DNA of 64,000 bases, taken from the NCBI GenBank assembly GCA_964016885.1, contig OZ024740.1, forward strand, positions 147,436,001 to 147,500,000, read 5' to 3'. Positions within the stretch are counted from its first letter, which is position 1; each line of letters starts with the position of its first letter. Under the pieces are notes generated by a model that saw only the letters and a list, made by a program, of their open reading frames with translations, did no database searches and was not told the DNA's origin. The stretch comes from Eledone cirrhosa (taxonomy: Eukaryota). Below, piece after piece: positions 23,955 through 59,793 of the stretch. A program made the position numbers and the translations under genes.

Positions 23955-24259
23955 TTTAAGATAAATTTATCTTAGGTTTAGTTTCTATTTGTAACTTGTT
24001 GAGCGACCACCTGATTTGCCATATTGTGTCGCACTCTGCCTGCTTACATAACAAATCATGTACATTATAAACGTACGGTAGTGGAATACTACCATCACGT
24101 TGCTAACTACAGTAGCATATAAAAACAAAAAACAAAAAGATTACAAAGGGTTATTATACAATCACTTTGACGTCTTCGAAATATAGCAATACAATAGACT
24201 ATACAATAAATAGAGAATGTACACCCGCTATTTATTGTATAATCTCCCTTCTTTTTATT

Positions 24260-24315
24260 GCGAAATAAATACTTTTGTTTATATTTTGTTAGTGTATGAA
24301 AAAATATCTGTACAC

Positions 24316-24373
<58 letters not shown>

Positions 24374-24428
24374 GTGTACAGATATTTTTTCATACACTAA
24401 CAAAATATAAACAAAAGTAATTATTTCG

Positions 24429-24429
<1 letters not shown>
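24260..24429. repeat. Palindrome: ~59-bp arms around (TA)n
   Basis: 24260-24318 is the reverse complement of 24371-24429 with one mismatch. Confidence 0.95.
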
Positions 24430-24484
<55 letters not shown>

Positions 24485-24489
<5 letters not shown>

Positions 24490-24690
24490 AACGAGTAGGA
24501 CCCCGACGGCTGAGGTCAAGCCGTTTCGACGGCTAATTCTGGACTAAATTTAGTCCAGAATTAGCCGTCGAAACGGCTTGAGCTCAGCCGTCGGGGTCCT
24601 ACTCGTTCCTATTACCCACTCTACTACCCTAAGTATTGAGTACTTTGGTGCGTTATGGTCCACCTGGTTCCTTACCACATTTCCTTCGTT
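24485..24690 (+). mobile_element. Penelope-like terminal fragment with 128-bp foldback and hammerhead 3' half
   Basis: Palindrome 24485-24612 centred on CTAAA|TTTAG; same family as 42383-42500 and 45775-45956; flanked by (TA)n. Confidence 0.75.
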
Positions 24691-24977: not shown

Positions 24978-25934
24978 GAATTCGCAGACCAGACCCCTTC
25001 TTCCTCCCGTTAGACCTGTGCGAAATTCATTCCTTGCTCGCATTTCAACCAGGTTTGATGGTCTTTATTCTCTCGTTCACGATTTCACCGAATTTATATT
25101 CATAGAAATCTGGGACTTGTCTCTTTCTTCATCACTTTCTGTTGCTTAAACCATTTTGTTTGTTTACCCTAGCATCCCCTTTATTTACGTGTCCCAACGA
25201 CTTTTTTTAGCCGTTGCTCGCACCAACCTGAGGTATATGGTCTTTAAAGCGATGAAATGCCTATGACGGCTGGAAGACCACTGATGAAGGACACACTTTT
25301 TCATATGTAACCCATTTGCAACGCCGCAGCTCCATTATTATCATATTTACACATATATTTTTTCCTCTGCCGCTACCCGTCTGTTTCGTTCTTTGTATCT
25401 TTACCCTTTCTAGCAGTCTCTCTCTCTCTGTTAGCCTCTTCCTCACCCTTCACTCACTCATTCTCTATCACTACCTCTCCTCCTCCTCTTTCTTCCCGTT
25501 TGACCTGTCCGTAATTCTTTTCTCGCGCGCTCTTGGCCAAGCGGTATGAATTTTTTTTCTCTCTCTCTCTCTCTCGTCTGCGACTTCACAGAACTTATGT
25601 TTACCGAATTCGCAGACCAGACCCCTTCTTCCTCCCGTTAGACCTGTGCGAAATTCCTTCCTTGCTCACATTTCAACCAGGTTTGATGGTCTTTATTCTC
25701 TCGTTCACGATTTCACCGAATTTATATTCATAGAAATCTGGGACTTGTCTCTTTCTTCATCACTTTCTGTTGCTTAAACCATTTTGTTTGTTTACCCTAG
25801 CGTCCCCTTTATTTACGTGTCCCAACGACTTTTTTTAGCCGTTGCTCGCACCAACCTGAGGTATATGGTCTTTAAAGCGATGAAATGCCTATGACGGTTG
25901 GAAGACCACTGATGAAGGACAAACTTTTTCATAT
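24978..25934 (+). repeat. ~328-bp direct repeat (24978-25306 / 25606-25934), pLTR-like
   Basis: Near-identical copies 628 bp apart, each ending CCACTGATGAAGGAC; related sequence at about 45130-45410. Confidence 0.85.
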
Positions 25935-25951
25935 ATATATATATATATATA

Positions 25952-26241
25952 TATAGAGAAAATTGAGGTTGGTAATGGCACATGGAATATATAAGAGACA
26001 GAATACTTTTTTGTGAAAAAACATAATTTTATAAGGTAAGGAAATAATAAAGGGTATAAAAAATGACCGGTTTCGATGGGTCTGCAAAAGCTTTTGCAAA
26101 AGCTTTTGCAGACCCATCGAAACCGGTCATTTTTTATACCCTTTATTATTTCCTTACCTTATAAAATTATGTTTTTTCACAAAAAAGTATTCTGTCTCTT
26201 ATATATTCCATGTGCCATTACCAACCTCAATTTTCTCTATA
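25952..26241. repeat. 290-bp palindrome carrying hammerhead 3' half (CGAAACCGGTC)
   Basis: Centre between 26096 and 26097 (GCTTTTG|CAAAAGC); identical ORF starts on both strands in the ORF track; flanked by (TA)n. Confidence 0.95.
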
Positions 26242-26269
26242 ACCTTCGTTTTGTGTAGAAAATTACACT

Positions 26270-26315
<46 letters not shown>

Positions 26316-27513: not shown

Positions 27514-27588
<75 letters not shown>

Positions 27589-28128
27589 CTAGGTGAGGTA
27601 CCCGGTAATAACCAGGAGCGGGTGTATTCCCATTTCCCATTAAAATGCCTAATGCCTCTCAGACCAAAAATGAAATCAAAATATAGGACACATAATCAAA
27701 AGCGAAGACAAATTCATTTACGAAACAATAATACAAACAAATATTGTTGATTGCATTGGTCAGGCGAAAAAATGTTTGTCAGATAAGTTTAATGTTGCTA
27801 TAAAGAAAAATATGGAACCCCCATTAGGGTGTCTTAATATTATTGAAATTTGCTGAAATTTTATGAATAGGCATCATATCTTGTCATTTACCTATGTTTT
27901 AAATTTCATATAAATCGAAGGGAAAAAAATTTCAGCGGGGGTTTTCACCAGGGGTTTTGTGCCCCCGGGGAACCCTTTGATTAAAATGAAATATACGTAA
28001 GAAATCAAATGGGCATGAGCCCCACACACGTGTCAAGTTTCATAAGATCGGTTTGGTAGTTTTTGAGTTTTAGGTTCACAAACAAACAAACACACAAACA
28101 GACAGAAATTGCTATTTATGTATATAGA
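27589..28128 (-). mobile_element. Non-autonomous Helitron
   Basis: Minus strand: A^TCTATATAC... start, (TTTG)n near the 5' end, CCTGGT-TATT-ACCGGG hairpin, then CTAG^T into (TA)n. Confidence 0.8.
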
Positions 28129-28356
28129 TTAAATATATAGATTTCTTTATTTACCATAAAGGCATAAAAAGAAGGGACAAATACAAAGGGGGAGTTTACA
28201 TATAATCGAGTAAAAAGGGTGTAACATGAAAATAATCGAAAATAACCTCAAAAGGGAGGGGACGTGATGGGGGTTGCACACACCCCCGAAAAAGTGTGCA
28301 ATCCTTTGCCCGGGGAGCACATGGAGAAGGTGCTCCCCTCTCCTTTACTTCTTTAC

Positions 28357-31300
28357 CTACAGGATGGTATACAGAGAAGGCCCATTTACACGAGCCATTC
28401 TCGCCACTATCACCCACCTTTCATAAAACTGCCTGTGGCCAAGCACCTCTCTCTCCATTCTTATCCTTCTTCCGAAGTGATATCGGAAGAAGTAGACCAG
28501 ACTATGGCCAGAGAGGAAGTTGCCTGACCTCAGACCTTTCAATCGTGTCCACCAAACAACCTCTTTCAACATGGCTATTACGCACAGAAAAACCGCCTTT
28601 GCTTCCTTTGTGAAGAGGGGAGGCGGTTTGATTGTCATCACGGACTCGGCTGTCAATTTAATCGGCGCCACCCGCGACAGCAGTTGTTCGGCGTAGCCCC
28701 ACAGATCAGCCACGCCCGGACATTGCACCAATGCGTGCGCCACGGTTTCTTCGTGACGCACGCATCTAGGGCAAATCTTTTTTGAGGGATCCTTGTCCGG
28801 GCGCCCGTGTCTGTAGAGCCTCTCTCGAACGGGTAGAGCCCCTCGGTAGCACTGCCAGGCCAGTGACTTCTGGAAGTTGTCCATTGGTCCTGGGCCGAAA
28901 GTCCTACCGAACAGGCTGGCCAGTTCGTCTTCTTCCATGTCCAGCGACTCTCCAAGGGTGTCATCGCCCCTGCTAGCCACCAGCCCTCTATAGAATGATG
29001 AGGTGGATTCTCCACCGATGGCCCGGCCCGCTTGCCAGAGAGCCCTGAGCGCCTGAGCACACTCAGTGTGCCAGTCTCCCAGTTTTCCGGATCTTTGCTT
29101 GACCCAGGACTGTAGCTCGGTGAGTGAGACGAGTCTCGGAAAGGCTCGTTTCACGAACGGAGCCCACACCGGTTGACCAGTGAGGAATACCTGTAGGTGC
29201 CGTAGCCTTAATGCGTGCCTACGCATCATCAACCACGGCATCCCCAGCCCTCCTTTCGAAGGTTGTTGGCAGCAGATGGATCTTCTCACCATAGGAGGAC
29301 GCTTCTTCCAAAGAAATTGGAAGAGCATGCGTTCCATGGTGGTGAGTGTTTCCTTAGGGCAAGGCACGACAGTCAGGCGGTAGTAAGTGACGGACGCTAT
29401 GTAAATGTTCGCCACCTCCGCCCGGCCTTTTAGGGACAGCTTACACTTGGCCCATTTCTGGGTTAGTGCAAACACCTTGTTCGTAACCTCGTTCCAGTTC
29501 TTTTCCACCTGGAGGTCCGGTCCAAACCAGACCCCAAGCAACTTTACCGGGCCCTCCGTCCAGTGTCCGACGACACCATCGGGAGGCATCGGTCTGCCTC
29601 TCCACGTTCCGAGTTGCAGCCCGATGGATTTTTCCCGGTTCAGTTTCGCTCCTGACAACCTTTCGTACTCCTCCAGTAAGGTACCGATCGCCTCGATCTC
29701 CGAGTCGGTTGATACCATTACTGTTACGTCATCGGCGTAGGCCGACACCGCTTTGCTCAATCCTGGTTCCAGGGGGATACCCTGCAACAACTCCAACTTC
29801 CTCAGTAAAGGCTCGAGAGTCAATACGTACAGAAGGGAGGAGAGAGGGCACCCCTGTCGAATGGATCGTGTGATTTCGAACGGCTTCGAAAGGTAGCCGT
29901 TCACCTTGATCCTAGAACAGATGTGGTTGCTATGTAGGGCAGTGATCCAGCCTCTGAAAACAGGACCGAACCCAGCCGCCGCTAGCACCGCATCCAGGTA
30001 ACCATGGTCGACCCTATCGAAGGCCTTAGACTGATCCAAGTTGATCAGGGCCCCACCGAAGCCGGGTTTGTTGCCAACCCTCTCTATGATGTATCGCATG
30101 AGGTGGAGGTTATCGTGAATGGACCTGGATGGGATAGCACATGTCTGCGCATCTCCCACCAGGCCACCCACGACAAGCGCCAACCTCTTTGCTAACACCT
30201 TGGCCAAAATCTTTAACTCTGTGTTTAGCAGGGTTATGGGCCGAAAATTATTTATACTATCCCCCTTGTTCTCGTCCTTCCTCACCAGCGTGACTACGCC
30301 CTTGGCTACAGAACAAGGAATTCTCCCGTTCTGCTGCCAATTGCAGTAGACCGCTTCGAGGAGTTCGGAGAAGAAGACCGGCATTGCTAAATAAAGTTCG
30401 TAAGGTATACCATCGAGACCTGGAGATTTGCGTCTGCTGCATTGGCTCAGCGCATCTCCGATCTCATCAGCCGAGATTGGTCCCTCGCAGGACTCCGCCT
30501 CTTTGTTCGAGAGACGCGGCAGGCCGTCGAGGTATGGACCGAAATCCACGCCCCGGCCCGGACCCTCGCCTCCCCCGAACAATCGGGCAAAGTGCTTTTG
30601 AAAGGCCTCGCACATCTGCTTAGGCTCCCGGATCACTCGTCCATCTTCGTCTTGCAACGACCGGATGGTGGATCGATTTCCACTTTTAGCTTCTGTCACG
30701 CGGGCCCATCCAACGGCTTTGGCCCCCTCATTACCTAGAGCACGTATTTTACTTCGAATGACGCAGCCTTCATGCTTTGCATCGAAAAACTGGTTCAAGG
30801 CCGTCCTCGATGCCAGCACTCGGGCCACATCTTCGCTCTTGATTGCCTCTTCTAATTTACCTGTTAATTCTTTCTCGTTTCTATTCCTATTGGCAGCTAA
30901 CATCTTGCTATAACTTATTGATTCTGTTCTAATCTCTCTTTTGAGAGATGCCCACCATCGGTTGTTGACGATTGCACCCGTCAACCTCTCCTTAACTAAT
31001 CTGCTAATCCGGTTTCTGTAAGTCTCTTTTGCCGGTAAAGACAAATTAAGTTTCCAGTAACCGGGACCCTGTCTATGTGTTTTCTCGAGATTGACCACGC
31101 AGGTCACTAATTTGTGATCCGTGTAGCCAACCGTGCGCATTTCTGGACAGCTTAATATGTCCCTATCCTTACTTCTAACTAAGAATCTATCTAAGTACGA
31201 TCTAGATTGACCACTGTGGTTTCTCCAAGTCCAGGTAGGCACAGTTGGAAAATCTAGTCGATATCTATCGACCAAGTTAAAACGGTCGAGTAACCCCTTG

Positions 31301-31794
31301 AGGCTGTTACACCCCCCTCTATTAGGACATGCTCCTGCATAGTCCCAACGTGCATCTAGGATGTCATTCCAATCCCCCGCTAGAAGCAGGGAACGCGACG
31401 TTCCCAGAAAAGTCTCCAAACGCTGGAAGAAGTCGGGCCGTTCAGCTCCGAAAGGGGAGTAGACGGCGACCAGTCTCAAGGCCGCACTTTCACTACTGCC
31501 AACGTCTAGCACCAACAAACGACCCTCCGGGTCCGAGTGCACAACCTGTACGGCAAGACCCAGGTGTTTTTGCAGCAGCACGACAACCCCACCCCCACCT
31601 CCAGGTTGACAGAGAGATGCATGCACCTCAAAGTCATCGAAGGTGGGGGCCAGCTGCCGCATGACGCTGATTCGAGTCTCACAGATAACCATTACATTTA
31701 TACTACATGACCTGAGGTCATTTAGAAGCTTTGCTTGCTTCCAAGTTGAGCCCAGGCCACGTGCATTCAAACATCCTACTCTTAACACATCCAT
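28357..31794 (-). CDS. L1/Tx1 ORF2 (APE endonuclease + RT + zf-RVT)
   Basis: 1145 aa; LNARGL, GDWN, YLDRF, TDHK; KSPGLDG, FRPITLLN, KAFDRV, QGCPLS, YADD; CPRC..ETVAHALVQC. Confidence 0.96.
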   Translation of the reverse strand: MDVLRVGCLNARGLGSTWKQAKLLNDLRSCSINVMVICETRISVMRQLAPTFDDFEVHASLCQPGGGGGVVVLLQKHLGLAVQVVHSDPEGRLLVLDVGSSESAALRLVAVYSPFGAERPDFFQRLETFLGTSRSLLLAGDWNDILDARWDYAGACPNRGGCNSLKGLLDRFNLVDRYRLDFPTVPTWTWRNHSGQSRSYLDRFLVRSKDRDILSCPEMRTVGYTDHKLVTCVVNLEKTHRQGPGYWKLNLSLPAKETYRNRISRLVKERLTGAIVNNRWWASLKREIRTESISYSKMLAANRNRNEKELTGKLEEAIKSEDVARVLASRTALNQFFDAKHEGCVIRSKIRALGNEGAKAVGWARVTEAKSGNRSTIRSLQDEDGRVIREPKQMCEAFQKHFARLFGGGEGPGRGVDFGPYLDGLPRLSNKEAESCEGPISADEIGDALSQCSRRKSPGLDGIPYELYLAMPVFFSELLEAVYCNWQQNGRIPCSVAKGVVTLVRKDENKGDSINNFRPITLLNTELKILAKVLAKRLALVVGGLVGDAQTCAIPSRSIHDNLHLMRYIIERVGNKPGFGGALINLDQSKAFDRVDHGYLDAVLAAAGFGPVFRGWITALHSNHICSRIKVNGYLSKPFEITRSIRQGCPLSSLLYVLTLEPLLRKLELLQGIPLEPGLSKAVSAYADDVTVMVSTDSEIEAIGTLLEEYERLSGAKLNREKSIGLQLGTWRGRPMPPDGVVGHWTEGPVKLLGVWFGPDLQVEKNWNEVTNKVFALTQKWAKCKLSLKGRAEVANIYIASVTYYRLTVVPCPKETLTTMERMLFQFLWKKRPPMVRRSICCQQPSKGGLGMPWLMMRRHALRLRHLQVFLTGQPVWAPFVKRAFPRLVSLTELQSWVKQRSGKLGDWHTECAQALRALWQAGRAIGGESTSSFYRGLVASRGDDTLGESLDMEEDELASLFGRTFGPGPMDNFQKSLAWQCYRGALPVRERLYRHGRPDKDPSKKICPRCVRHEETVAHALVQCPGVADLWGYAEQLLSRVAPIKLTAESVMTIKPPPLFTKEAKAVFLCVIAMLKEVVWWTRLKGLRSGNFLSGHSLVYFFRYHFGRRIRMEREVLGHRQFYERWVIVARMARVNGPSLYTIL

Positions 31795-31827
31795 GTGGGC
31801 GGCAGAGCCAAAGGAGAGTGTAGAGAC

Positions 31828-33705
31828 CTACCTTTCCGCTTCCCGGGGTTCGGGTTGCACGACTTCCATGGGGTCGGGGGTGTTGGGTGAAGGGGTGTCT
31901 TGTGGTGGTGTGGGGTCGTCGGTGTGTGGTGGGGTTGGGGTGTTTGGAGTTGTGTTGGGGAGGGGAAGGGGAGGGGGAAAGCTTTTTAGTAGGACGCGGT
32001 TTATGGGTTTGACAGAGGGTGGTCCTACGTCCTCCTTAAAATCCTTTTTTAGTTTTTGGTAGAGGTTCATTGGGATTTTTATTAGTTTTAAATGTGGGTG
32101 GTTTTCTGATGAAACAAAGTTTACACCTTCGGTTTGTACCGAAGGATTATTGTATATGAGTTCATTTAATTTATTATTGTTTCTGTTGATGTAAGTATAG
32201 TGTAATGTCTTTTTTTCCGATGGTGTGAGTGTTTCGAAGAGGGGAGGGGCAGGTTTGGTTTTGTTTGTTGCTGGAGGGGTGTTTTCTGTTTTGTTAGATT
32301 GTGTTGCGATTTGGGTGGGGGTTGTTTGTCCTTGTGTGTTTTGCACATGTTTTCTTTTTTTCCTTTTAATCTGTCTGAAGGACTCCGTTTCTTCCTCCGA
32401 ATTCGTTGGGTTATCTTCAGTGTTGGAGGGAAGAGGTATGTTTGCTGGTAATGTTTCCGTGTTGGTTTTCTTTGTGGGGGAGATGGATGTCACTATGTTA
32501 GACTGTGTTGTGTGTTGTGTCTGCGGTGGTTGTGTTGTTTTATTGAGTGAGAGGTTGGGTGGGCCTGTATTTTGTTTTGGGGTAATGTGTTGTGACTGTT
32601 TGTGTTGTGGTGGTGTTGTGGTGTTACTGAGGGACGGGTTGGGTGGGACTGAGTTTTGTTGTTTGTTTATCTGTTGTGGTGGTGGTGGTGGAGCTGGTGT
32701 TGGTAGCAGGGTTTTCTTTTTGTTGAGTTGGGGACAAGCGGCCTTCAGGTGCCCTCTGCCTGCACAGATATGGCAGGACGGCCTTCTCCCCTCCACGCTA
32801 ATGTTTATATACCCGTGGTCCTCTAATAGGATTCTGTCGGGTATTTGGGCGATGCGTTCAGGCTTCATTTGTACTACCAGCTCTATACCTGTTCCACTGA
32901 ACGCATTGCCTGTGGTTTTCCCAATGGAAATCACGTTGTCATTCACTGGATCGATGAAGCCAGCTATGAGCCAGCAGTAGTCCACATCTGGCATCATTGC
33001 ATCCAGCCATATGCGTTGAGTTTTTTTTCCCATATAAGATGGATAAAAGGTGAAATTTTTCGAACGAATCGGTGACAAAGCACATTTTTTTGCCGCCGAT
33101 TCGTTCTTCATGATAATTGCTAGGCTTCCATACAGTCTGTCTTTTCTTATGAAAGTTGTTTCATTCAGTACTTCTGCGAGTACTGTTTTGATATCTGCTT
33201 GAGAAGGCTGTTCAGGTTTTTTTGTACTGTTGTTGATGGTCCGAAACTTGACCGTTCGGCTTTCAATGTCTTTCGTGAATTCTTGAGGCATTTTTACCAA
33301 TAAAATACCATTCTCACCTTCACTTATGTATTGTTTTGCGTCCGTGATCCTTCGTACCACATCTGAAATGTTTTCCGCTATATAAGTCAAAGATTTCTTT
33401 GTTTTCTGTGCAAATGAAATCTTGTCGTCTGCTTTGTTTTCTGATATTATGTTATTTTCAACTGTTATTTTTTTGTTTGTTGTGTCTTTGTTTGTGTTAT
33501 TAGTATTGTCATGCAATTTTTCAAATTTTTTTTCTTCGTTGTTTTCGACATTTAATTTTTTCTCCGCAGATTCGTCCGTTTTTATTTTCATTTTTCCTTC
33601 CTTCTCTATGACGTTAGTTGGGAAGGAAGGGAGGACTAAAGCGTGCGAGCTTACAACTCTTACCGCTGTCCCCCCACCACTATTTTCGTTCGCTGCGTTT
33701 AACAT
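31828..33705 (-). CDS. L1/Tx1 ORF1 (gag-like, CCHC knuckle)
   Basis: 625 aa; CHICAGRGHLKAAC knuckle; Pro/Thr/Gln-rich C-terminus; ends 33 bp before ORF2. Confidence 0.9.
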   Translation of the reverse strand: MLNAANENSGGGTAVRVVSSHALVLPSFPTNVIEKEGKMKIKTDESAEKKLNVENNEEKKFEKLHDNTNNTNKDTTNKKITVENNIISENKADDKISFAQKTKKSLTYIAENISDVVRRITDAKQYISEGENGILLVKMPQEFTKDIESRTVKFRTINNSTKKPEQPSQADIKTVLAEVLNETTFIRKDRLYGSLAIIMKNESAAKKCALSPIRSKNFTFYPSYMGKKTQRIWLDAMMPDVDYCWLIAGFIDPVNDNVISIGKTTGNAFSGTGIELVVQMKPERIAQIPDRILLEDHGYINISVEGRRPSCHICAGRGHLKAACPQLNKKKTLLPTPAPPPPPQQINKQQNSVPPNPSLSNTTTPPQHKQSQHITPKQNTGPPNLSLNKTTQPPQTQHTTQSNIVTSISPTKKTNTETLPANIPLPSNTEDNPTNSEEETESFRQIKRKKRKHVQNTQGQTTPTQIATQSNKTENTPPATNKTKPAPPLFETLTPSEKKTLHYTYINRNNNKLNELIYNNPSVQTEGVNFVSSENHPHLKLIKIPMNLYQKLKKDFKEDVGPPSVKPINRVLLKSFPPPLPLPNTTPNTPTPPHTDDPTPPQDTPSPNTPDPMEVVQPEPREAER

Positions 33706-33973
33706 TTCTGTTAGACGATTGAAATTTTTTACACAAAATTTTTTTTAAAACAGGTTTTTCACCTCTAGGAGGGGTAAAGATGAGCTGACCCACCGCCTGA
33801 CAGTTCAGACGGAGGGTCAAGCTACACAATTGTATCAAAATTAAGTTTGAACTCACAAAATTTCCTCAATAAATTTGAACAAAACTTCTGTGCGAAGTGA
33901 ATGACATCCACACTGTAGAACAGACGACAGCTAGATTAATATATAGATTAAATATATAGATAGATAGATATAT

Positions 33974-36900
33974 TTCTTTATTTACCATAAAGGCATAAAA
34001 AGAAGGGACAAATACAAAGGGGGAGTTTACATAAAACCGAGTAAAAAGTGTATAAAATGAAAATAATCGAAAACAACCTCAAAAGGGAGGAGACGTGATG
34101 GGGGTTGCACACCCTACCGAAAAAGTGTGCAATCCTTTGCCCGGGGAGCACATGGAGAAGGTGCTCCCCTCTCCTTCACTTCTTTACCTACAGGATGGTA
34201 TACAGAGAAGGCCCATTTACACGAGCCATTCTCGCCACTATCACCCACCTTTCATAAAACTGCCTGTGGCCAAGCACCTCTCTCTCCATTCTTATCCTTC
34301 TTCCGAAGTGATATCGGAAGAAGTAGACCAGACTATGGCCAGAGAGGAAGTTGCCTGACCTCAGACCTTTCAATCGTGTCCACCAAACAACCTCTTTCAA
34401 CATGGCTATTACGCACAGAAAAACCGCCTTTGCTTCCTTTGTGAAGAGGGGAGGCGGCTTGATTGTCATCACGGACTCGGCGGTCAATCGAATCGGCGCC
34501 ACCCGCGACAGCAGTCGTTCGGCGTAGCCTCACAGATCAGCCACGCCCGGACATTGCACCAATGCGTGCGCAACGGTTTCTTCGTGACGCACGCATCTAG
34601 GGCAAATCTTTTTCGAGGAATCCCTGCCCGGGCGCACGTGTCTGTAGAGCCTCTCTCGAACGGGTAGACCCCCTCGGTAGAACTGCCAGTCTAGTGACTT
34701 CTGGACGTTGTCCATTGGTCCCGGGCCGAAAGTCCTACCGAACAGGCTGGCCAGTTCGTCCTCCTCCATGTCAAGCGACTCTCCAAGGGTATCATCGCCC
34801 CTGCTAGCCACCAGCCCTCTATAGAATGATGAGGTGGATTCTCCACCGATGGCCGGGCCCGCTTGCCAGAGAGCCCTGAGCGCCTGGGCACACTCAGTGT
34901 GGCAGTCTCCCAGTTTTCCGGATCTTTGCTTGACCCAGGACTGCAGCTCGGTGAGCGAGACGAGTCTCGGAAAGGCTCGTTTCACGAACGGAACCCACAC
35001 CGGTTGACCAGTGAGGAATACCTGTAGGTGCCGTAGCCTTAATGCGTGCCTACGCATCATCAACCACGGCATCTCCAGCCCTCCTTTCGAAGGTTGTTGG
35101 CAGCAGATGGATCTTCTCACCATAGGAGGGCGCTTCTTCCAAAGAAATTGGAAGAGCATGCGTTCCATGGTGGTGAGTGTTTCCTTAGGGCAAGGCACGA
35201 CAGTCAGGCGGTAGTAAGTGACGGACGCTATGTAAATGTTTGCCACCTCCGCCCGACCTTTTAGGGACAGCTTACACTTGGCCCATTTCTGGGTTAGTGC
35301 AAACACCTTGTTCGTAACCTCGTCCCAGTTCTTTTCCACCTGGAGGTCCGGTCCAAACCAGACCCCAAGCAACTTCACTGGGCCCTCCGTCCAGTGTCCG
35401 ACGAAACCGTCGGGAGGCATCGGTCTGCCTCTCCACGTTCCGAGTTGCAGCCCGATGGATTTTTCCCGGTTCAGTTTCGCTCCTGACAACCTTTCGTAAT
35501 CCTCCAGTAAGGTACCGATCGCCTCGATCTCCGAGTCGGTCGATACCATTACTGTTACGTCATCGGCGTAGGCCGACACCGCTTTGCTCAATCCTGGTTC
35601 CAGGAGGATACCCTGCAACAACTCCAACTTCCTCAGTAAAGGCTCGAGAGTCAATACGTACAGAAGGGAGGAGAGAGGGCACCCCTGTCGAATGGATCGT
35701 GTGATTTCGAACGGCTTCGAAAGGTAGCCGTTCACCTTGATCCTAGAACATATGTGGTTGCTATGTAAGGCAGTGATCCAGCCCCTAAACAGGACCAAAC
35801 CCAGCCGCCGCTAGCACCGCATCCAGGTAACCATGGTCGACCCTATCGAATGCCTTAGACTGATCCAAGTTGATCAGGGCCCCACCGAAGCCGGGTTTGT
35901 TGCCAACCCTCTCTATGATGTATCGCATGAGGTGGAGGTTATCGTGAATGGACCTGGATGGGATAGCACATGTCTGCGCATCTCCCACCAGGCCACCCAC
36001 GACAAGCGCCAACCTCTTTGCTAACACCTTGGCCAAAATCTTTAACTCTGTGTTTAGCAGGGTTATGGGCCGAAAATTATTTATACTATCCCCCTTGTTC
36101 TCGTCCTTCCTCACCAGCGAGACTACGCCCTTGGCTACAGAACAAGGAATTCTCCCGTTCTGCTGCCAATTGCAGTAGACCGCTTCGAGGAGTTCGGAGA
36201 AGAAGACCGGCATTGCTAAATAAAGTTCGTAAGGTATACCATCGAGACCTGGAGATTTGCATCTGCTGCATTGGCTCAGCGCATCCCCGATCTCATCAGC
36301 CGAGATTGGTCCCTCGCAGGACTCTGCCTCTTCGCTCGAGAGACGCGGCAGGCCGTCGAGGTATGGACCGAAATCCACGTCCCCGCCCGGACCCTCGCCT
36401 CCCCAGTAACCGGGACCCTGTTTATGTGTTTTCTCAAGATTGACTACGCAGGTCACTAATTTGTGATCCGTATAGCCAACCGTGAGCATTTCTGGACAGC
36501 TTAATATGTCCCTATCCTTACTTCTAACTAAGAATCTATCTAAGTACGATCTAGATTGACCACTATGGTTCGTCCAAGTCCAGGTTGGCACAGTTGGAAA
36601 ATCTAGTCGATATCTATCGACCAAGTTAAAACGGTCGAGTAACCCCTTGAGGCTGTTACACCCCCCTCTATTAGGACATGCTCCTGCATAGTCCCAACGT
36701 GCATCTAGGATGTCATTCCAATCCCCCGCTAGAAGCAGGGAACGCGACGTTCCCAGAAAAGTCTCCAGACGCTGGAAGAAGTCGGGTCGTTCAGCTCCGA
36801 AAGGGGAGTAGACGGCGACCAGTCTCAAGGCCGCACCTTCACTACTGTCAACGTCTAGCACCAACAAGCGACTCTCCGGGTCAGAGTGAACAACCTGTAC

Positions 36901-39298
36901 GGCGAGACCCAGTTGTTTTTCCAGCAGTACGACAACCCCACCCCCACCACCAGGTTGACAGAGAGATGCATGCACCTCAAAGTCATCAAAGGTAGGGGCC
37001 AGCTGCCGCACGACGCTGATCCGAGTCTCACAGATAACCATTACATTTATACCACGTGACCTGAGGTTATTTAGAAGCTTTGCTTGCTTCCAAGTTGAGC
37101 CCAGGCCACGTGCATTCAAACATCCTACTCTTAACACATCCATGTGGGCGGCAAAGCCAAAGGAGAGTGTAGAGACCTACCTTTCTGATTCCCGGGGTTC
37201 GGGTCGCCCGACTTCCATGGGGTCGGGGGTGTTGGGTGAAGGGGTGTCTTGTGGTGGTGTGGGGTTCTCAGTGTGTGGTGGGGTTGGGGTGTTTGGAGTT
37301 GTGTTGGGGAGGGGAAGGGGAGGGGGAAAGCTTTTTAGTAGGACGCGGTTTATGGGTTTGACAGAGGGTGGTCCTACGTCCTCCTTAAAATCCTTTTTTC
37401 GTTTTTGGTAGAGGTTCATTGGGATCTTTATTAATTTTAAATGTGGGTAGTTTTCTGAAGAAACAAAGTTTACACCTTCGGTTAGTACCGAAGGGTTATT
37501 GTTTATGAGTTCATTTAATTTATTATTGTTTCTGTTGATGTAAGTATAGTGTAATGTCTTTTTTTCGGATGGTGTGAGTGTTGAGGGGAGGGGCAGGTTT
37601 GGTTTTGTTTGTTGCTGGAGGAGTGTTTTGTGTTTTGTTGGATTGTGTTGACATTTGGGTAGGGGTTGTTTGGTCTTGTGTGTTTTGCACATGTTTTCTT
37701 TTAATCTGTCTGAAGGACTCCGTTTCTTCCTCCGAATTCGTTGGGTTGTCTTCAGTGTTGGAGGGAAGAGGTATGTTTGCTGGTAATGTTTCCGTGTTGG
37801 TTTTCTTTGTGGGGGAGATGGATGTCACTATGTTAGACTGTGTTGTGTGTTGTGGCTGCGGTGGTTGTGTTGTTTTATTGAGTGAGGGGTTGGGTGGGAC
37901 TGTTTTGTTTTTGGGTAATGTGTTGTGACTGTTTATGTTGTGGTGGTGGTGTAGTTTTATTGAGGGACGGGTTGGGTGGGACTGAGTTTTGTTGTTTGCT
38001 TATCTATTGTGGTGGTGGTGGAGCTGGTGTTGGTAGCAGGGTTTTCTTCTTGTTGAGTTGGGGACAAGCCGCCTTCAGGTGCCCTCTGCCTGCACAGATA
38101 TGACAGGACGGCCTTCTCCCCTCCACGCTAATGTTTATATACCCGTGGCCCTCTAATAGGATTCTGTCGGGTATTTGGGCAATGCGTTCAGGCTTCATTT
38201 GCACTACAAGTTCTATACCTGTTCCACTGAACGCATTGCCTGAGGTTTTCCCAATGGAAATCGCGTTGTCATTCGCTGGATCGATGAAGCCAACTATGAG
38301 CCAGCAGTAGTCCACATCTGGCATCATTGCATCCAGCCATATGCGCTGAGTTCTTTTACCCATATAAGATGGATAAAAGGTAAAATTTGTCGAACGAATC
38401 GGCGACAAAGCATATTTTTTTGCCGCCGATTCGTTCTTCATAATAATCGCTAGGCTTCCATACAGTCTGTCTCTTCTTATGAAAGTGGTTTCATTAAGTA
38501 CTTCTGTAAGTACTGCTTTGATTTCTGTTTGTATTGGTTGTTGAGGTTTTTTAGAAATGTTGTTGATGGTGCGGAAAACGACCGTCCAACTTTCAATGTC
38601 TTTGGTGAGTTCTTGAGGCATTTTTACCGATAAAATACCATTTTCCCCTTGAGTTATGTATTGTTTGGTGTTTTTAATTCTTTGTGCCACATCTGAAATA
38701 TTTTCAGGTATATATGTCAAAGATTTCTTTGTTGTTTGTGCAAACGAAATATTATTGGTGTTGACTTTGTCGTCTGCTTTGCTTTCTGTTATGATGTTGT
38801 TTTCAAATGTTATTTTTGTGTTTGTTGTCTTTGTTTGTGGTATTAATATTGTCATGCAATTTTTCAATTTTTTTTTCTTGTTGGAATCAATGTCCAGATT
38901 TGTGTTTTCGTCATTTTTCTCCGCACATTCGTCTGTTTTTCTTTTATTTTTTCTTTCTTTCTCTATGACGTTAGTTGGGAAGGAAGGGGGGGGGGGACTA
39001 AAGCGTGCGAGCTTACAACTCTTACCGCTGTCCCCCCACCACTATTTTCGTTAGCTTCGTTTAACATTTCTGTCACACGATTGAAATTTTCAGCCATAAA
39101 ATTTTTAAAAACAGGTTTTTCACCCCTGGGAGGGGCGAAGATGAGCTGACCCACCGTCTGACAGTTCAGGGGGGTCAAGCTACACAATAGTATCAAAATT
39201 AAAATTGAACTTACAAAATTTCCGCAATAAATTGGAACAAAACTTCTGCGCGAAGTGAATTACATCTACGCTGTAGAACAGACGACAGCTAGAATTTG
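33974..39298 (-). mobile_element. L1/Tx1 copy 2 (disrupted)
   Basis: Same family; in-frame deletion of about 480 bp after GPGYW, frameshift near 35785, TGG>TGA at 34530, broken ORF1; ~23-bp TSD at 33951-33973 and 39299-39321. Confidence 0.92.
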
Positions 39299-39321
39299 AA
39301 TATATAGATAGATAGATATAT

Positions 39322-39391
39322 TTCTTTATTAGCCACAGGGGCACAAAAGAAGGAGACAAATACAAAGGGGGAAGTTTACATACAATAAAAA

Positions 39392-39393
<2 letters not shown>
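39322..39393 (-). mobile_element. L1/Tx1 3'-end stub (copy 3)
   Basis: TTCTTTATT...GACAAATACAAAGGGGG..TTTACATA matches the 3' ends of copies 1 and 2; abuts (TA)n. Confidence 0.8.
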
Positions 39394-39470
<77 letters not shown>

Positions 39471-39503
39471 AGGAGAGAGAGAGAGAGAGAGAGAGAGAAA
39501 GAA

Positions 39504-39548
<45 letters not shown>

Positions 39549-42335: not shown

Positions 42336-42382
<47 letters not shown>

Positions 42383-42386
<4 letters not shown>

Positions 42387-43469
42387 AAAAAGTATGACCC
42401 CGACGGCAGAGCTCAAGCCGCTTCGACGGCTATTTCTGGACTAAATTAGAATTTTTAGCCTGGTGAATAAATAGCCGAACTTGTCAAGGGGTACTTCCTT
42501 ATATGGGAAGATTGTAGTTGTCAAGAGGATTGGTTAAAATTTGTTGTAAACACAAATAAGTCTATCATGGCATTTAGTGGGAGGTAGGGGTGGATGAACT
42601 TGCCTGTAGAACAATAAGGGTGTGAGTGGAGCGGTCAAGCGTTGAAAGTGATATGTATACAGCAGATTCTAAGGATAGTGTATGAAGTGGAGGAGGGGCG
42701 TTATAGAATAGGTAAATCGAATGAGAGTAGGAGACAATAAAAGATAATAGAAAAAAAATATATATAGTGAGAAATGAATAAAAATTTGTTGTTGAGGGGG
42801 CACGTAGATCTATCAGGGCAGTTACACCTTCTGGTCGGTTCTCCACTGATGTCTAGGTTATTTCTTCCATAGGGGTTGAGTTTTTTGTTGTTTGAGGAGA
42901 CGATGTTTTGTGCGAAGTTAGGTGTGGTGCTGTAGGAGAGTTTGATGGTGTTTTTGTTGATTATGTTGTGGTAGCGGTGTTGTAGTGGGAAGTGTTTTTC
43001 GAGGAGTCTAAAGAAGATTTTCCCGATAGGTGTTGCTACCTCGGCATTATGGGGAGGATTGAACCACGCTACGTTGCGTGAGCGGCGGTGTCGCCTGCTG
43101 GTTCCGCTAAGGGAAGCTGGATAAAAGGATATTTCCTCCCGGAAGCCACTCCGCTTGAGGGCCTGGTTGTAATGAGGCGCGTGTTCGTCGAATATCTGCT
43201 CATTAGCGGACAAACAAGATATGCGGAGGGAGATGTTTTTAACCAGGTTATTGGTGATGTTTCTAGGATGGTTAGAGCGGCGGTGGATGTAGTGCAGGTT
43301 GTCGTTTGGTTTCCTGTATAGGTAGTACCAGGAAATTGACTCGGGTTAGGGACGTTTGTAGGGTGATTTTAAATCCCCAGTCCTGGAGTAGCTTCCGGGA
43401 GGAAATATCCTTTTATCCAGCTTCCCTGAGTGGAACCAGCAGGCGAGACCGTCGCTCACGCAGTCGTAG
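42383..43469 (-). mobile_element. Penelope-like retroelement fragment (Naiad-type linker), endonuclease deleted
   Basis: YNQALKRSG, RNVAWFNPP, HFP..H, IKLSYS, CNCPDRSTCPL; degenerate hammerhead at 42397-42492; inverted duplication 43385-43469 of 43068-43152. Confidence 0.85.
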
Positions 43470-46351: not shown

Positions 46352-46950
46352 TTAGCAAATGCAGGCAAGCCTGTGTGAAAAATGTGTCAAGAATTTGAAC
46401 CGTTTATGAACTTTGTCCGATGAGTTATGTTTCTGGGAAGCTTTCTCAATATGTCCTATAACTTTATGGTGATTGTGGTATCGAGCGTAAGCGATTGGTT
46501 TTTCTTTGAAACTATCTTCAACAGATATGTCTGCATTACGGGACAAAAGAAATTCAACAATTTTGGGATCACCTCTATACGCTGCTAAATGCAACAGTGT
46601 ACAGTTACCTGGTAATCCATCACTTGATTCGCCTAATTGGCAGTTGATACTTACTCCAGAATCTAAGACTTTTTCAAGTAGTTCTTTATGACCCCGTAAA
46701 ACGCAGGCATGCACAAATGTCCATCCATGAATATTATGTGTAAAGATTTTCTTTGCCGTAAGAGGTCGAGATTTAATGATGTTATTAACATTTCTTAAAA
46801 GGTTCTTTTCTTTCGAATGCAACTGCTTAAGTAAACTTACAGCAATTTTGTCAATTCTGAAAGCATCTGGAAATGGTGATGCGGGTTCTGGAAAATCAAG
46901 TGCCATAAAGTAGGGCATGGTGTTGTGAAGGTTTTGTAGTTTTGTGAATC
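46352..46950 (-). CDS. Ankyrin-repeat protein, terminal (possibly only coding) exon
   Basis: GWTFVHACVLRGHKELLEKVLDSGVSIN; TLLHLAAYRGDPKIVEFLLSRNADISVED..PIAYA; TTGTTCCAG acceptor at 46951-46952; in-frame ATG at 46918. Confidence 0.8.
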
Positions 46951-47008
46951 CTGGAACAAACAATAAACTAATTAGTTACATCGGAATAAACGAGAGTGAA
47001 GGTGTATA

Positions 47009-52415: not shown

Positions 52416-54223
52416 AAGGCATTCGACATGGTACCTCATTCTTGGATAACCAAAAGCCTAGAGATCTTCAAGGTGGCAGATAACATCAAACAGTTGTTGA
52501 GCAAAAGTATGAAGTCCTGGGAAGCAGAGTTAACATTAGGTGGAGAATCCCGGGAGGCGTGAAGATCAAGAGAGGTATCTTCCAGGGAGATAGTCTGTCC
52601 CCTCTGTTGTTTGTCCTTGCCCTGATACCCCTGACCATTATACTGCGAAAAGTGAGAGCAGGATACAAGTTTGGAAAAGGAGAGCTTACCATCAACCACC
52701 TCCTCTTCATGGACGATCTTAAACTCTTTGGGAAGAGTGAGAAGGAGTTGGATGTACTTGTTGAGACTGTCTCTATTTTCAGCAGTGATATATGTATGCA
52801 ATTTGGTATTAATAAGTGTGGAGTCCTAGTGATGAAGAGGGATAAATTGAGCAGAAGCAATGGAATCCAGGTACCAACAGGTGAGATGATAAAGGAAATT
52901 GATACTGAAGAGGGATACAAATATTTAGGTGTTCTGGAGGCTGATGACATCAAGAATAAAAAAATGAAGGAATTGATAAGATCTGAATACATTCGGAGAG
53001 TAAGGAGCATATTAAAATCACAACTGAACAGTAGGAATGCCATAAGTGCAGTAAATTCCCGAGCTGTGTCTATTATTAGGTACAGTGCGGGAATTCTGAA
53101 ATGGAATGTTGCAGAACAAAAAGAAATGGATAGGAAGACTAGGAAGCTATTGACTATCTACAACATGTTCCACAAAAGGAGTGATGTCGATAGACTCTAC
53201 TTAAGGAGATCTGAAGGTGGAATAGGTCTTATCAGCATAGAGGACTGTGTTCAGATGGAGAAAAACAACCTACACAAATACGTGACTGATAGTAGGGAGC
53301 CAATGCTCAGAATTGTACTGAAGGAGAGGACAATAGACCAGAGGATGTCCAGGGAGGAAATAACAACAAGGAGAAAGAGCAACCTTCAGGAAAAATCCCT
53401 TCATAGTGCCTTATTTGAGAAAACTGAATTTAGAGATCCACAGACATGGAACTGGTTGAAAAGAGGAGACGTTAAAAAGGTTACAGAAGGAATGCTAATG
53501 GCTGCGCAGGAGCAGGCCCTCAAAACGAAGTGGCTGAAACACCATATTTACAAGGAGGAGGCTAACCCACTGTGTAGGATCTGTGGAGAGAGAGAGGAGA
53601 CTGTGTGGCTCACATTGTATCCGAGTGTAAACACCTAGCCCAGACTCACTATAAAGGCTGGAGACATGATGGGCAGGGTGATCCACTGGCACCTATGCAA
53701 AGTAAACAATTTACCACATTCTGAGAAGTGGTATGAGTATAAGCCAGAGTCGGTGATGGAAAACGATGAGGTGAAGGTGCTGTGGGATTTTAGGATACAG
53801 ACGGACAAGAAACTGGAACACAATAGACCTGACCTGGTGGTTGTGGACAAAGAAAAAAGATCGTGCCTGATTGTGGATGTAGCCTGCCCATTCGACATGA
53901 GAGTGCAAGAGAAGGAGAGGGAGAAAATTAACCGATACCAGGACTTAAAGTGGGAGGTAAAAAGGATTTGGAACGGCCATGAGACAAAGTGGTCCCGATT
54001 GTCATAAGCGCACTAGGTACTATCTCAAAGAGTTTCCAAGGATGGTTAAAGAAAATTGGTCCAGCCCCGCTTTTTGGAACACTTCAAAAGGCATGCTTGC
54101 TGGGAACAGCAAGAACCCTCCGATACGTCCTGAATATCTGAGGCTACAGGTAGTGGCTTGATATTCATCTCAACAACTTTCCAGTTAACTAACATCAATG
54201 ACTGAGACTCAAAGAGTAATAAC

Positions 54224-54289
<66 letters not shown>
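52416..54289 (+). mobile_element. R4/Dong-type RLE retrotransposon, copy A (5'-truncated, frameshifted), (TAA)n tail
   Basis: Begins at KAFDMVPH; GIFQGDSLSP, LFMDD, NRPD; same 3' UTR as B and C. Confidence 0.92.
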
Positions 54290-55028
54290 CATCACCGCCG
54301 CCACCACTCCTTCATTGCTACCACCGCTATCCCCCCATTACCTTCTGTTAACTTACGAAAGGGGAAGATGGCGGTATCACTAGACAATATTAATAAACAA
54401 GATTAATATTTAATTTTGGATCAGGAATGTTAGAGTCGAAAAGGAGGAAAATGACAAAATGACTAAATAACTAAAGATAATTTCACCACCAACACCACCA
54501 CCACCACCACTACCACGATCAAAACTCTGGTCAAGTCGACTCAAACGCTATTTCTACTCCAACTTCAACACCATCACTACAGTACTACGATCAAATCACC
54601 ACCACCACTGCCTCATTATCGCTACCGCCGCTATTCTCTCCCACTACCTCCTGCTAGTTGCTGCTAGCACAGCACCGCCACCACCGCCACCGCTGCCTCA
54701 TATTCACTACCGCCGCTATTCTCTCCCGTTACCCCCTGCTACATCGTAGAATCCCCTAAAAGAGGAAGGCATCAAAATATATAAATAGACTGAATTGATG
54801 ACCCGGTCAAAATCAGAAAAACAAAAATCAAAATCAAAGCAGCACAGCAACAACGAAAAACGTAAAGAAAATAAAAATGAAGAGAAAAACAAACAGACGG
54901 ACAGAGAAGGGAAGGGAAAAACTAAGTCAGACATTCAAACACTACATTACAATGAAACTTATGCTTATTCATTTTTGGTGTGTTTTTTTTGCCTGTTTAT
55001 TTGTTTGTTTATTTATGTTCGTCTACAG

Positions 55029-58000: not shown

Positions 58001-58644
58001 GGAGAGAGGGAGGAGACTGTGGCTCACATTGTATCCGAGTGTAAACACCTAGCCCAGACTCACTATAAGGGCTGGAGACATGATGTGATGGGAAGGGTGA
58101 TCCACTGGCACCTATGCAAAGTAAATAATTTACCGCATTCTGAGAAGTGGTATGAGCATAAGCCAGAGTCGGTGATAGAAAACGATGAGGTGAAGGTGCT
58201 GTGGGATTTTAGGATACAGACGGGCAAGACACTTGAACATAATAGACCTGACCTGGTGGTTGTGGACAAAGAAAAAAGATCGTGCCTGATTGTGGATGTG
58301 GCCTGCCCATTCGACACGAGAGTGCAAGAGAAGGAGAGGGAGAAAATTAACCGATACCAGGACTTAAAGTGGGAGGTAAAAAGGATTTGGAACTGCCATG
58401 AAGTCAAAGTGATCCCGATTGTCATAGGCGCACTAGGGACTATCTCAAAAAGTTTCCAGGGATGGTTAAAGAAAATTGGCCCCTTCACGCTTTTTGGAAC
58501 GCTTCAAAAGGCATGCTTGCTGGGAACAGCAAGAACCCTCCGATACGTCCTGAATATCTGAGGCTGCAGGTAGTGGCTTGATATTCATTTCAACAAACTT
58601 TCCAGTTAACTAACAGCAATGACTAAGACTCAAAGAGTAATAAC

Positions 58645-58706
<62 letters not shown>

Positions 58707-58750: not shown

Positions 58751-59665
58751 GTAAGTTTTGAATTTTTAACATATTTAAATCATTTGTGAAATAACAGCTC
58801 TTAGTACAAATGCTACGTAAAGCACCCGGCTTGAGCCCCAAAAAATTCGGACCCAAAATATATTGTTATAAGGCTCAAATATTCAAATATTCAACTTTGT
58901 ATTGTACACTGTATATCCAAAAAAAGAAAATGGCTATAAATGGAAGAAGAACCCCCCCCCCCCCCCTCCTCTCCTCTGTCTACACTATATAGGACAGCCA
59001 AACTCACCAACACCAGAAACTAGATACACCACCCACCCCATCATCTGTGTACACTAAACACAACAGCCAGATAACGGCATTTTCACCTTCACCACCACCG
59101 CTCACTACGGCCATCATTACCACCACTATCCCATCACCGCCGCCACCACCCCTTGACTCCTTCACTGCTGCCACCGCTACAGCACCATCACTACAGTAAT
59201 ACGGTCACATCACCGCCACCACTGCCTCGGTATCGACATCACCACCACCACTGTCTCAGTATCGCTACCGCCGCCAGTCTCCCACTTCTCCCTGCTGGCT
59301 GCTACTTCCACATTATAGAATTCCTACTACTAACAAAGAGGAAGGCATCAAAATATATAGATAGACTCAAAAGAAAAAAGAAAAAACAAACAACAAAACC
59401 AAAGCAGCACAGCAACAACAGCAAAAACGAGAAAAACAAACAGAGAAAAAACAAAAACAAAAAAAGAAACCCCAAAAACGTAAAGAAAATAAGAATGAAG
59501 AGAGAAGCAGGCGGACGGACAGAGAAGAGGGGGGAAAAAGTAAAACTTAAAAAACAAAAACTAAGTCAGACATTCGAACACTACATTACAATGAAACTTA
59601 TGCTTATTCATTTTTGGGGCCCTTTCTGCCTGTGTGTTTGTTTGTTTATGTGTGTTCGTATACAG

Positions 59666-59721
59666 CGTGGTGATAATGCTACACAAGGGCCAAGTGGGAT
59701 GGCGGATCCACAGATGGCTAT
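59666..59721 (+). other. Putative paralogous exon 5' part, interrupted by copy C
   Basis: Homologous acceptor context; RGDNATQGPSGMADPQMA; same phase at the junction. Confidence 0.4.
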
Positions 59722-59793
59722 GTAACCATACATTCGCCAATCCTCGATAAGAGTGTTTAAATATCGAACATAAACAGTTCGAATAACGGTGAA

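Follow-up and report, generated by a model that had tools for sequence, protein, structure and literature searches.

Stacked L1/Tx1-type retrotransposons in Eledone cirrhosa suggest a preference for ATCT/AT microsatellite motifs beside a likely Helitron

Introduction

Among APE-type L1/Tx1 retrotransposons, Kibi, Koshi and the crocodilian (TTCC)n/(TTTC)n Tx1 elements have simple-repeat targets (PMC4494074), and others overlap another transposon, namely Tx1L in Tx1D, Tx1-Mar in Mariner-N4 and Tx1-9_AMi in Harbinger (PMC4494074, PMC1950540). SINEU-3, which is likely a passenger of Tx1-Mar, forms tandem insertions that sandwich a target-site duplication (TSD), and Tx1 families are treated as target-specific when at least 20% of their flanks are of one repeat type (PMC4494074). 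In Octopus vulgaris there are 13 recently active L1-Tx1 families, found together with Dong-R4, RTE and Helitron elements (PMC13282606).

Here we describe a locus in a 64,000-nucleotide stretch of Eledone cirrhosa DNA (contig OZ024740.1, positions 147,436,001 to 147,500,000 of the forward strand; hereafter the window), whose mix of repeats is like that of O. vulgaris. The locus can be likened to Kibi and Koshi by its type of target, although the motif here appears to be an AT/ATCT compound, and to the second group in that one insertion overlaps another transposon. No Tx1 element with a Helitron end as its target was found in the literature searched; such a target, if true, would be a new class for Tx1.

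Results

There are three minus-strand copies of an L1/Tx1-type element and they are arranged head-to-tail: a 71-bp stub representing a 5'-truncated 3' end (39322-39392), a broken 5.3-kb copy 2 whose 5' end is full-length (33974-39298), and an intact, full-length 5.8-kb copy 1 (28143-33939; 5,797 bp). Coordinates, open reading frames and alignment confirm the anatomy given in a preliminary description, which placed co-oriented stub, disrupted and intact copies beside the TC start of a Helitron. The stack and the Helitron-like element are bracketed by a (TA)n tract beyond the latter (27514-27588) and by (TA)26 followed by (GA)n upstream of the stack (39394-39548), which are likely two halves of one original microsatellite. 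Other repeats in the window that adjoin TA tracts belong to families D16, I3 and I13.

In copy 1, ORF1 (31828-33705, minus strand; 625 aa) and ORF2 (28357-31794, minus strand; 1145 aa) are both open; they share a reading frame and are separated by one stop codon and a 33-nt spacer. The 3' end of the copy is AATAAAGAA, with no poly(A). ORF2 contains the Pfam domains PF03372 (APE endonuclease), PF00078 (RT) and PF13966, the last at 26.8 bits, just below the cut-off of 27.5. The RT motif YADD is at residue 686 and a CCHC zinc finger is C-terminal. Its APE catalytic motifs N, E, Y, DxN, D and DH align to human L1 ORF2p, which is also the best solved match (E 1e-50 over residues 8-855, compared with 5e-20 for R2). 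Between its anchors, the hairpin loop of the endonuclease is 9 residues long, as in human L1, compared with 11 in Tx1L. ORF1 has a single CX2CX4HX4C knuckle at residue 311 and matched no Pfam family; its look-alikes by ESM, a model-based resemblance, are of zf-CCHC, RRM and ZCCHC3 type (0.89-0.92). The ORF1 of Tx1-clade elements is of the RRM/zf-CCHC type (PMC5203782).

An APE domain with its catalytic residues, an RT closest to that of L1, a C-terminal CCHC, a separate upstream ORF1, TSDs and 5' truncation are all present and place copy 1, as judged from sequence, in the L1 group; we call it L1/Tx1-type, its membership of the Tx1 clade being putative. The database matches include no curated Tx1 reference (Tx1L, Keno, Kibi or Koshi), and the only match named TX1 bears an automated fungal label and sits on a long branch. 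Relatives from metagenomes, among the 80 loci kept, are only 22-44% identical. There were no matches to the exact DNA pattern of the element 3' end in genome and viral contigs, no relatives in a protein alignment search of viral contigs, no names from a cluster look-up of 10 proteins and no Rfam families in the window. When the Helitron-like element and the two UTRs were compared with 146 loci by local BLAST, the only matches were two of low complexity.

Copy 2 has a 480-bp deletion in ORF2 at 36405, a 2-bp ORF2 deletion at 35787 and frameshifting indels in ORF1. Its identity to copy 1 is 85-88% over the 800 bp at the 5' end and 94-99% over the remainder, and the two copies are 13 indels apart. 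The stub matches copy 1 at 61 of 71 bases, and its candidate TSD of 7 bp (39393-39399) is low in complexity and too weak to count. Its allele at position 33988, the only diagnostic position visible, is found in 1,886 of 2,012 RAD reads. The stub may thus belong to a sister subfamily, in which case its differences are probably not due to decay. The proposed increase in decay from copy 1 to the stub needs correction, as 5' truncation accounts for the shortness of the stub, whose differences may be subfamily markers.

The TSD of copy 1 is an exact 22-bp repeat at 28121-28142 (3' side) and 33940-33961 (5' side), and that of copy 2 is an exact 23-bp repeat at 33951-33973 (3' side) and 39299-39321 (5' side, directly behind the 3' end of the stub). 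The two overlap by 11 bp in the junction spacer between copies 1 and 2 (33940-33973), and each repeat is present at only its two places when both strands of the window are searched with up to 2 mismatches. The duplications that had been reported, one including the Helitron start and the other overlapping the first duplication, are exact and unique in the window. Within the 22-mer, the initial 10 nt are also present at other loci, and the final 12 nt were seen at this locus only. It is therefore more than the element's own consensus end, an objection that had been raised in advance. The stub and copy 2 have an identical 3' junction, and that of copy 1 lies 12 bp further on. A site struck repeatedly at 12-bp steps is thus an accurate account of copy 1, but not of the stub and copy 2.

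If the stack had arisen by tandem duplication in place or were an error of assembly, and the repeats were element ends, the presence of one 23-mer behind both the stub and copy 2 could be read as a shared tail. An identical pair of truncated units in arrays of a sister lineage (see below) suggests some tandem duplication there. We nevertheless consider this very improbable for the window, because copies that are 12-15% apart in the 5' 800 bp and carry 13 indels are too divergent for local duplication, the locus-specific 12-mer is on both sides of copy 1, and similar junctions occur in independent reads. The divergence and the exact repeats support the original view that the copies are independent insertions with real TSDs.

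The 540-bp element (27589-28128, minus strand) has TC at its 5' end (28128) and CTAG at its 3' end (27592-27589), is inserted between A and T, and contains a 16-nt hairpin (27616-27601) that ends 12 nt from the 3' end. These features agree with those of canonical Helitrons, which have a 5' TC, a 3' CTRR, a palindrome of 16-20 nt about 11 bp from the end and an A|T insertion site (PMC4067079). The element is likely a non-autonomous Helitron with an apparent 5' boundary, near which there is a (TTTG/TGTC)-type microsatellite. A partial second copy (11352-11728) is 87% identical; the body and the CTAG|T end are common to both, and the 5' 150 bp and the hairpin differ. The Helitron is multi-copy in read contigs, which match it to 28125 at most. 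The exact pattern of its body had no matches in two collections of genome and viral contigs.

On the minus strand, the last 8 nt of the copy 1 TSD are the apparent first 8 nt of the Helitron. The Helitron is about 9% diverged from five contigs of set X5, whereas copy 1 differs from six contigs of set X4 at 22 positions in 4,398 bp (0.5%, excluding X4 records 10 and 14, which have 46 and 60 differences and represent a diverged subfamily); this suggests that the Helitron is likely older. Later insertion of the Helitron into the TSD of copy 1 was also considered and is disfavoured, since it needs an extra mutation and a chance match of 8 nt and the Helitron looks older.

One possibility is that Helitron 5' termini are the target of the family, in line with the Tx1 families known to insert into Mariner, Harbinger, LTR elements and Tx1D (PMC4494074). 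The overlap of the copy 1 TSD with the Helitron, the likely precedence of the latter and the resemblance of a recurring 10-mer, ATCTATATAT, to an A|TC Helitron start are all consistent with this proposal. However, it draws on one locus, and the second Helitron in the window has no LINE neighbour of this sort, though its 5' end differs.

RAD reads from the best-matching species (run X11), which sample few loci and are counted as reads rather than loci, also point elsewhere. Their depth is 109 at 28187 compared with 1,405 at 34018, a position whose homology was checked, so at most 7% of reads could enter this Helitron. The Helitron-side junction takes no more than 109 of 1,514 RAD reads over one 3'-UTR position in this one run, which is below the 20% of flanks used for target-specific Tx1 families. 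In X4, the flank match of the main high-depth contig (contig 9, depth 66.5) stops at 28133, 5 bp short of the Helitron TC, and its remaining 11 unmatched letters could be a variant Helitron start. Contig 20 of X5 follows the Helitron to 28112 and then continues with 899 letters unlike the window. Run X1, which carries another species label, has depths of 35 plus 81 at the element 3' end and 0 at 28043, a gap that contigs cannot establish as true absence. In X4, depth is similar for the Helitron 5' part (89.5 at 28043) and the element 3' end (66.5 plus 45.5), which means that copy number there gives no argument against linkage. The X5 and X4 ratios are opposite, and copy numbers were therefore not derived from summed contig depths. 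On balance, a Helitron 5' end as the chosen target is distinctly unlikely, as the reads argue against it for this Helitron family; other Helitron families with similar starts may yet be hit.

Junctions at other loci were assessed from the 15 listed of 261 joints and the 24 listed of 2,799 loose ends, and none of these 24 is at the element 3' end. Among the listed joints, 33970>33952 (364 reads, 16 starts) places the 3' end before a longer ATCT/AT repeat. Three others, 28876>28133, 29421>33952 and 29439>33964 (121, 89 and 73 reads, respectively), represent 5'-truncated copies that follow another 3' end at distances of 12, 24 and 15 nt; with 1-2 starts each, a single molecule or a chimera of the library may underlie them. 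The preliminary description had noted that generic microsatellite flanks would tell against a Helitron target, and this is largely what the four joints exhibit, each having a microsatellite or a tandem copy as its flank. An AT/ATCT microsatellite flank fits three of three 3' ends in the window and the four listed joints; the latter are from RAD reads and are not an unbiased count of loci, and alignment against the window's own flanks only will have favoured ATCT/AT matches. The suggestion of an ATCTATA target typical of Helitron starts survives as a probable preference for a short ATCT/AT motif, but the reads, contig 9 and the four joints speak against its choice as a Helitron 5' end.

A sister lineage, grouped with SH-aLRT 98 in a quick tree and only 40% identical to the window family, forms arrays with up to 13 3' ends per contig separated by short spacers. 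None of its 41 3' ends has a TCTATA, ATCT or TA-run flank, so this lineage bears on stacking and not on the motif of the window family. There were no Rfam families in 7 sister loci and no tRNAs by ARAGORN in 11 loci, which indicates that no RNA gene is the target. Sister subfamilies have endonucleases that are 90-95% identical, with one identical hairpin loop, and yet their spacers are unrelated (0-7 of 17 positions). In one class of 15 units, spacers differ by 12.5%, an ungapped count that one-base shifts inflate, compared with 0.34% for the 3-kb bodies.

These arrays raise another possibility, in which the flank is carried on RNA. Transcripts would extend 20-25 nt past AATAAA, their ends would pair with the nicked strand, and the flank of the donor would set the next target. 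The lack of poly(A) and the position of the TSDs, which end 25-26 nt past AATAAA, fit such a scheme, and this is the usual distance of cleavage. A 22-mer behind the element 3' end recurs exactly in the window and two RAD joints, and such recurrence at several loci is expected of an RNA-borne tail and of a target alike. Spacers that differ more than bodies do, beside near-identical endonucleases, and the requirement of R1Bm for downstream target sequence in accurate priming (PMC7265360), add to the case. However, the duplication of copy 1 is perfect even in the 12 nt found only here, which makes an RNA contribution unnecessary. Moreover, several sister copies, some 5'-truncated, are flanked by a pair of identical 17-mers in the manner of plain TSDs, the 12-24 residue differences among endonucleases could retune them, and recombination between arrays could mix spacers. 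We regard an RNA-borne flank as unlikely. The fuller proposal, that the target is written by the read-through RNA flank and not by the endonuclease, with subfamilies inheriting their motif and restacking into arrays of up to 70 kb, is doubtful; under it, an inherited ATCT/AT motif would allow the window family to land on a Helitron start.

Discussion

The explanation we prefer, with a probability of about 0.6, is that the family favours an ATCT/AT compound-microsatellite motif that is regenerated behind each new copy and thereby gives rise to the stack. Head-to-tail stacking would then be likely because each insertion recreates the landing motif. The Helitron probably plays no part in this and is likely an older resident of the same TA tract. 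Perhaps the Helitron first entered the (TA)n tract at A|T, after which ORF2p may have made a nick in the neighbouring ATCT/AT motif and used target-primed reverse transcription to insert a copy of its RNA. The observed 23- and 22-bp duplications are the product of staggered second-strand cuts, and the 22-bp one extends 8 bp into the Helitron start. Subsequent copies land at an earlier 3' end, or some 12-24 bp behind it, as seen here and in reads of other loci. In a fifth step, the target might be read by the endonuclease alone or through pairing of the RNA 3' end as well. An RNA-borne flank is compatible with the first four steps and would replace the last.

On this explanation, the locus can serve repeat annotation and offers a clean example of stacking driven by TSDs. 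If sister subfamilies change targets with their endonuclease unchanged, target choice would be RNA-templated and heritable; this would bear on the evolution of site specificity and on the retargeting of APE retrotransposons for gene insertion, and the intact copy 1 makes it testable. The model for such pairing comes from R1Bm and SART1Bm (PMC7265360), which, however, belong to the R1 clade and not to L1/Tx1.

The target of SINEU-3 is backed by many loci (313 insertions, 90%; PMC4494074), in contrast to the single locus described here, from whose Helitron the reads point away. Stacks with a TSD between copies are likewise found in tandem dimers of transposable elements and in an R1 array formed by double insertion, where the TSD regenerates the target (10.1101/158386), whereas the stack described here has two nick positions separated by 12 bp and probably contains more than one subfamily. 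Re-insertion behind an element's own copies is thus a known behaviour, and this family adds a young, intact L1/Tx1-type element with a probable AT/ATCT preference to the known list.

The LINE stack and its duplications

Reading along the minus strand, the region begins with (TC)n(TA)26, followed by the 71-bp stub at 39392-39322 and a spacer of 23 bp. Copy 2 (39298-33974) comes next, then a spacer of 34 bp and copy 1 (33939-28143). Beyond copy 1 lies a 22-bp flank that contains the first 8 bp of a 540-bp Helitron-like element (28128-27589), and (TA)n closes the region. The stub and both copies are L1/Tx1-type LINEs on the minus strand, which have the common 3' terminus AATAAAGAA and lack poly(A). 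Both target site duplications (TSDs) are exact and, in the whole window with up to 2 mismatches allowed, each occurs at its two places only. The three-copy stack proposed in a preliminary description is confirmed. The target was also said to be hit at steps of about 12 bp. Copy 1 does join 12 bp onward, but a single 3' junction is common to the stub and copy 2.

Copy 1 carries an open ORF1 (625 amino acids, with a single CCHC knuckle) and an open ORF2 (1145 amino acids, with APE, RT and a zinc finger), which are in frame with one stop between them. The nearest solved relative of this ORF2 is human L1 ORF2p. Copy 2 is damaged by a 480-bp deletion and frameshifts. That the stack is a duplication or an artefact is very unlikely, since copies 1 and 2 are only 85-88% identical across the 5' 800 bp, compared with 94-99% in the remainder. 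The copies are separate insertions, not products of a local duplication. The stub allele at positions 33988 and 39336 is in the majority in sequencing runs X11 (1,886/2,012), X4 and X1, and stands at 9% in X5. Given these frequencies, the stub may have its 3' end in common with an abundant sister subfamily or with a short derivative.

The reading we favour, at a probability of roughly 0.6, is that target-primed reverse transcription takes place at a short ATCT/AT motif. Element RNA would be copied in at this motif, and the TSD would restore the landing motif behind each newcomer, thereby permitting stacking. TSDs and stacking are directly observed; the nick preference for ATCT/AT is inferred.

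The Helitron and its setting

The element adjoining copy 1 has a 5' TC, a 3' CTAG, a 16-nt hairpin located 12 nt short of its end, and an A|T site, in agreement with the canonical definition (PMC4067079). A second family copy (11352-11728, plus strand) is 87% identical in its body and also ends in CTAG|T; its hairpin is absent and its 5' part is different. Therefore, the 28128-27589 element is likely a non-autonomous Helitron with a putative exact 5' boundary. The second copy, delimited more widely as 11155-11728 (plus strand), is partial, has a repeated internal segment and sits within an RTE-like LINE remnant. Read depth over the repeated segment (near 27863 in the first copy) greatly exceeds that over the remaining element, as for a satellite-forming central repeat.

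The Helitron shows 79 differences over about 840 bp from five X5 contigs. Copy 1 shows 22 differences over 4,398 bp from six X4 contigs, a count that leaves out two more X4 contigs of a diverged subfamily. Because its divergence is greater, the Helitron likely predates copy 1, and therefore the simplest account is that the copy 1 duplication captured 8 bp of a pre-existing Helitron start.

Together, the stack and the Helitron interrupt a single TA tract, and more window repeats (families D16, I3 and I13) adjoin such tracts. Because Helitrons insert at A|T and other repeats also adjoin TA tracts, a shared habitat explains the adjacency of LINE and Helitron, and makes targeting unnecessary. Palindromic MITE-like repeats and a common repeat end lie next to (TA)n tracts at 24256-24550, 25931-26315 and 42339-42447.

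There is a second retrotransposon cluster within the window, at 52484-63265 (plus strand). Three RT elements in the same orientation make it up; each has a restriction-like endonuclease-type region at the C terminus and terminates in (TAA)n, and we take them to be Dong/R4-like. Two have ORFs of about 1,140 amino acids, and the leftmost is 5'-truncated and adjoins a TA tract. A piggyBac-type DDE transposase fragment (4721-5194) and an ankyrin-repeat reading frame (46352-46975), probably a host exon, are found on the minus strand. The mix of repeats in the window may point to an octopod genome.

Read evidence on Helitron targeting

The preliminary description proposed that the family aims at ATCTATA motifs at Helitron 5' ends. 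Four of 13 listed runs were aligned at 85% likeness to 27590-34035, which holds the element 3' end twice, once beside the Helitron and once beside an ATCT spacer. The RAD run X11 gave a depth of 109 on the Helitron side, at 28187, versus 1,405 at 34018, positions whose homology was checked. Because reads passing from the element into the Helitron would match the former place, they make up at most 7%, although RAD samples few loci and the counts are of reads.

The read evidence draws on 15 of 261 joints and 24 of 2,799 loose ends, in a comparison biased toward flanks resembling the window's own. Among the joints listed, 33970>33952 (364 reads, 16 starts) has a longer ATCT/AT repeat after the 3' end. 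Three others represent copies truncated at 734 nt (28876>28133), 1,279 nt (29421>33952) and 1,297 nt (29439>33964) that start 12, 24 and 15 nt, respectively, behind another 3' end across ATCT/AT-type spacers, each with 1-2 starts and so possibly single molecules or chimeras. A high-depth X4 contig across the 3' end has only ATCTATATAT in common with the window flank and diverges 5 bp ahead of the Helitron TC; its 11 unmatched letters could be a variant Helitron start. One X5 Helitron contig continues 5' into unrelated DNA. In X1, which carries another species label, the element end is present with zero contigs at 28043.

In X4, where the Helitron is as deep as the element end, depth does not speak against a linkage. 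The X11 fraction and the ATCT/AT-type or tandem joints listed make targeting of Helitron ends unlikely for the window's Helitron family, other Helitron families being undetectable by this test. The earlier interpretation is partly supported.

A sister lineage that also stacks

An alignment search recovered a sister lineage of the window element (40% identity) in G001, a bin titled as a bacterium. This sequence is evidently animal DNA, presumably of host origin, and the animal-like contigs of the bin are likely host contamination. A quick tree with 72 rows groups the sister and window RTs (SH-aLRT 98). One pattern found 62 sister 3' ends, up to 13 per contig at about 6.4-kb spacing, in which AATAAA and a short spacer are followed by the next copy. 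Many contigs (C3-C19; loci L001-L044 and L127-L146) carry head-to-tail arrays, which reach 13 3' ends in 70 kb. For none of 41 sister ends in 20 regions do the following 60 nt contain TCTATA, repeated ATCT or a run of TA, and the sister-lineage flanks yielded no RNA gene. Thus, stacking is a habit of the lineage that requires no Helitron. At one array end (L128 466-6746, contig C9), a tandem pair of near-identical 5'-truncated 3.1-kb units suggests tandem duplication alongside re-insertion.

Among 23 full units, sister subfamilies have endonucleases that are 90-95% identical and unrelated spacers (0-7 of 17 positions), and they also differ in the 5' region. One class of 15 units differs by 12.5% (ungapped) in the spacer and by 0.34% in the body. 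Some units have the same spacer on either side, as in plain TSDs, and others do not. One spacer reappears in unique DNA at the upstream end of its array, whereas the match is partial or absent at three further upstream ends. This pattern raises, short of proof, the alternative that the landing motif is carried on the element RNA. It would fit TSDs that stop 25-26 nt past AATAAA, the use of downstream target sequence in R1Bm priming (PMC7265360) and sister targets that vary although the endonuclease is near-constant. We nevertheless consider it unlikely, and prefer priming at ATCT/AT motifs in the target.

Comparison with known systems

Tx1 targets on record in PMC4494074 include microsatellites, the piggyBac-type Tx1D, Mariner, Harbinger and LTR elements, and the same paper describes tandem insertions with a TSD sandwiched between them. 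Dimers arising from regenerated targets are a general phenomenon (10.1101/158386). In the literature searched, which lies outside Repbase, subscription papers and the PMC4494074 supplements and includes PMC8869645, PMC4640811, PMC13282606 and PMC9004415, neither a Helitron-targeting Tx1 nor a target for the window's L1/Tx1 family came to light.

The copy 1 element belongs to the L1 group, and its ORF1 is compatible with the Tx1 clade. Its endonuclease hairpin loop is 9 long, as in L1, whereas that of Tx1L is 11, a length shared by the sister lineage. The element acts like a target-preferring Tx1, of which it is a putative member. It adds to an already known type of target-preferring LINE, and the sister arrays are notable because targets vary while the endonuclease hardly changes.
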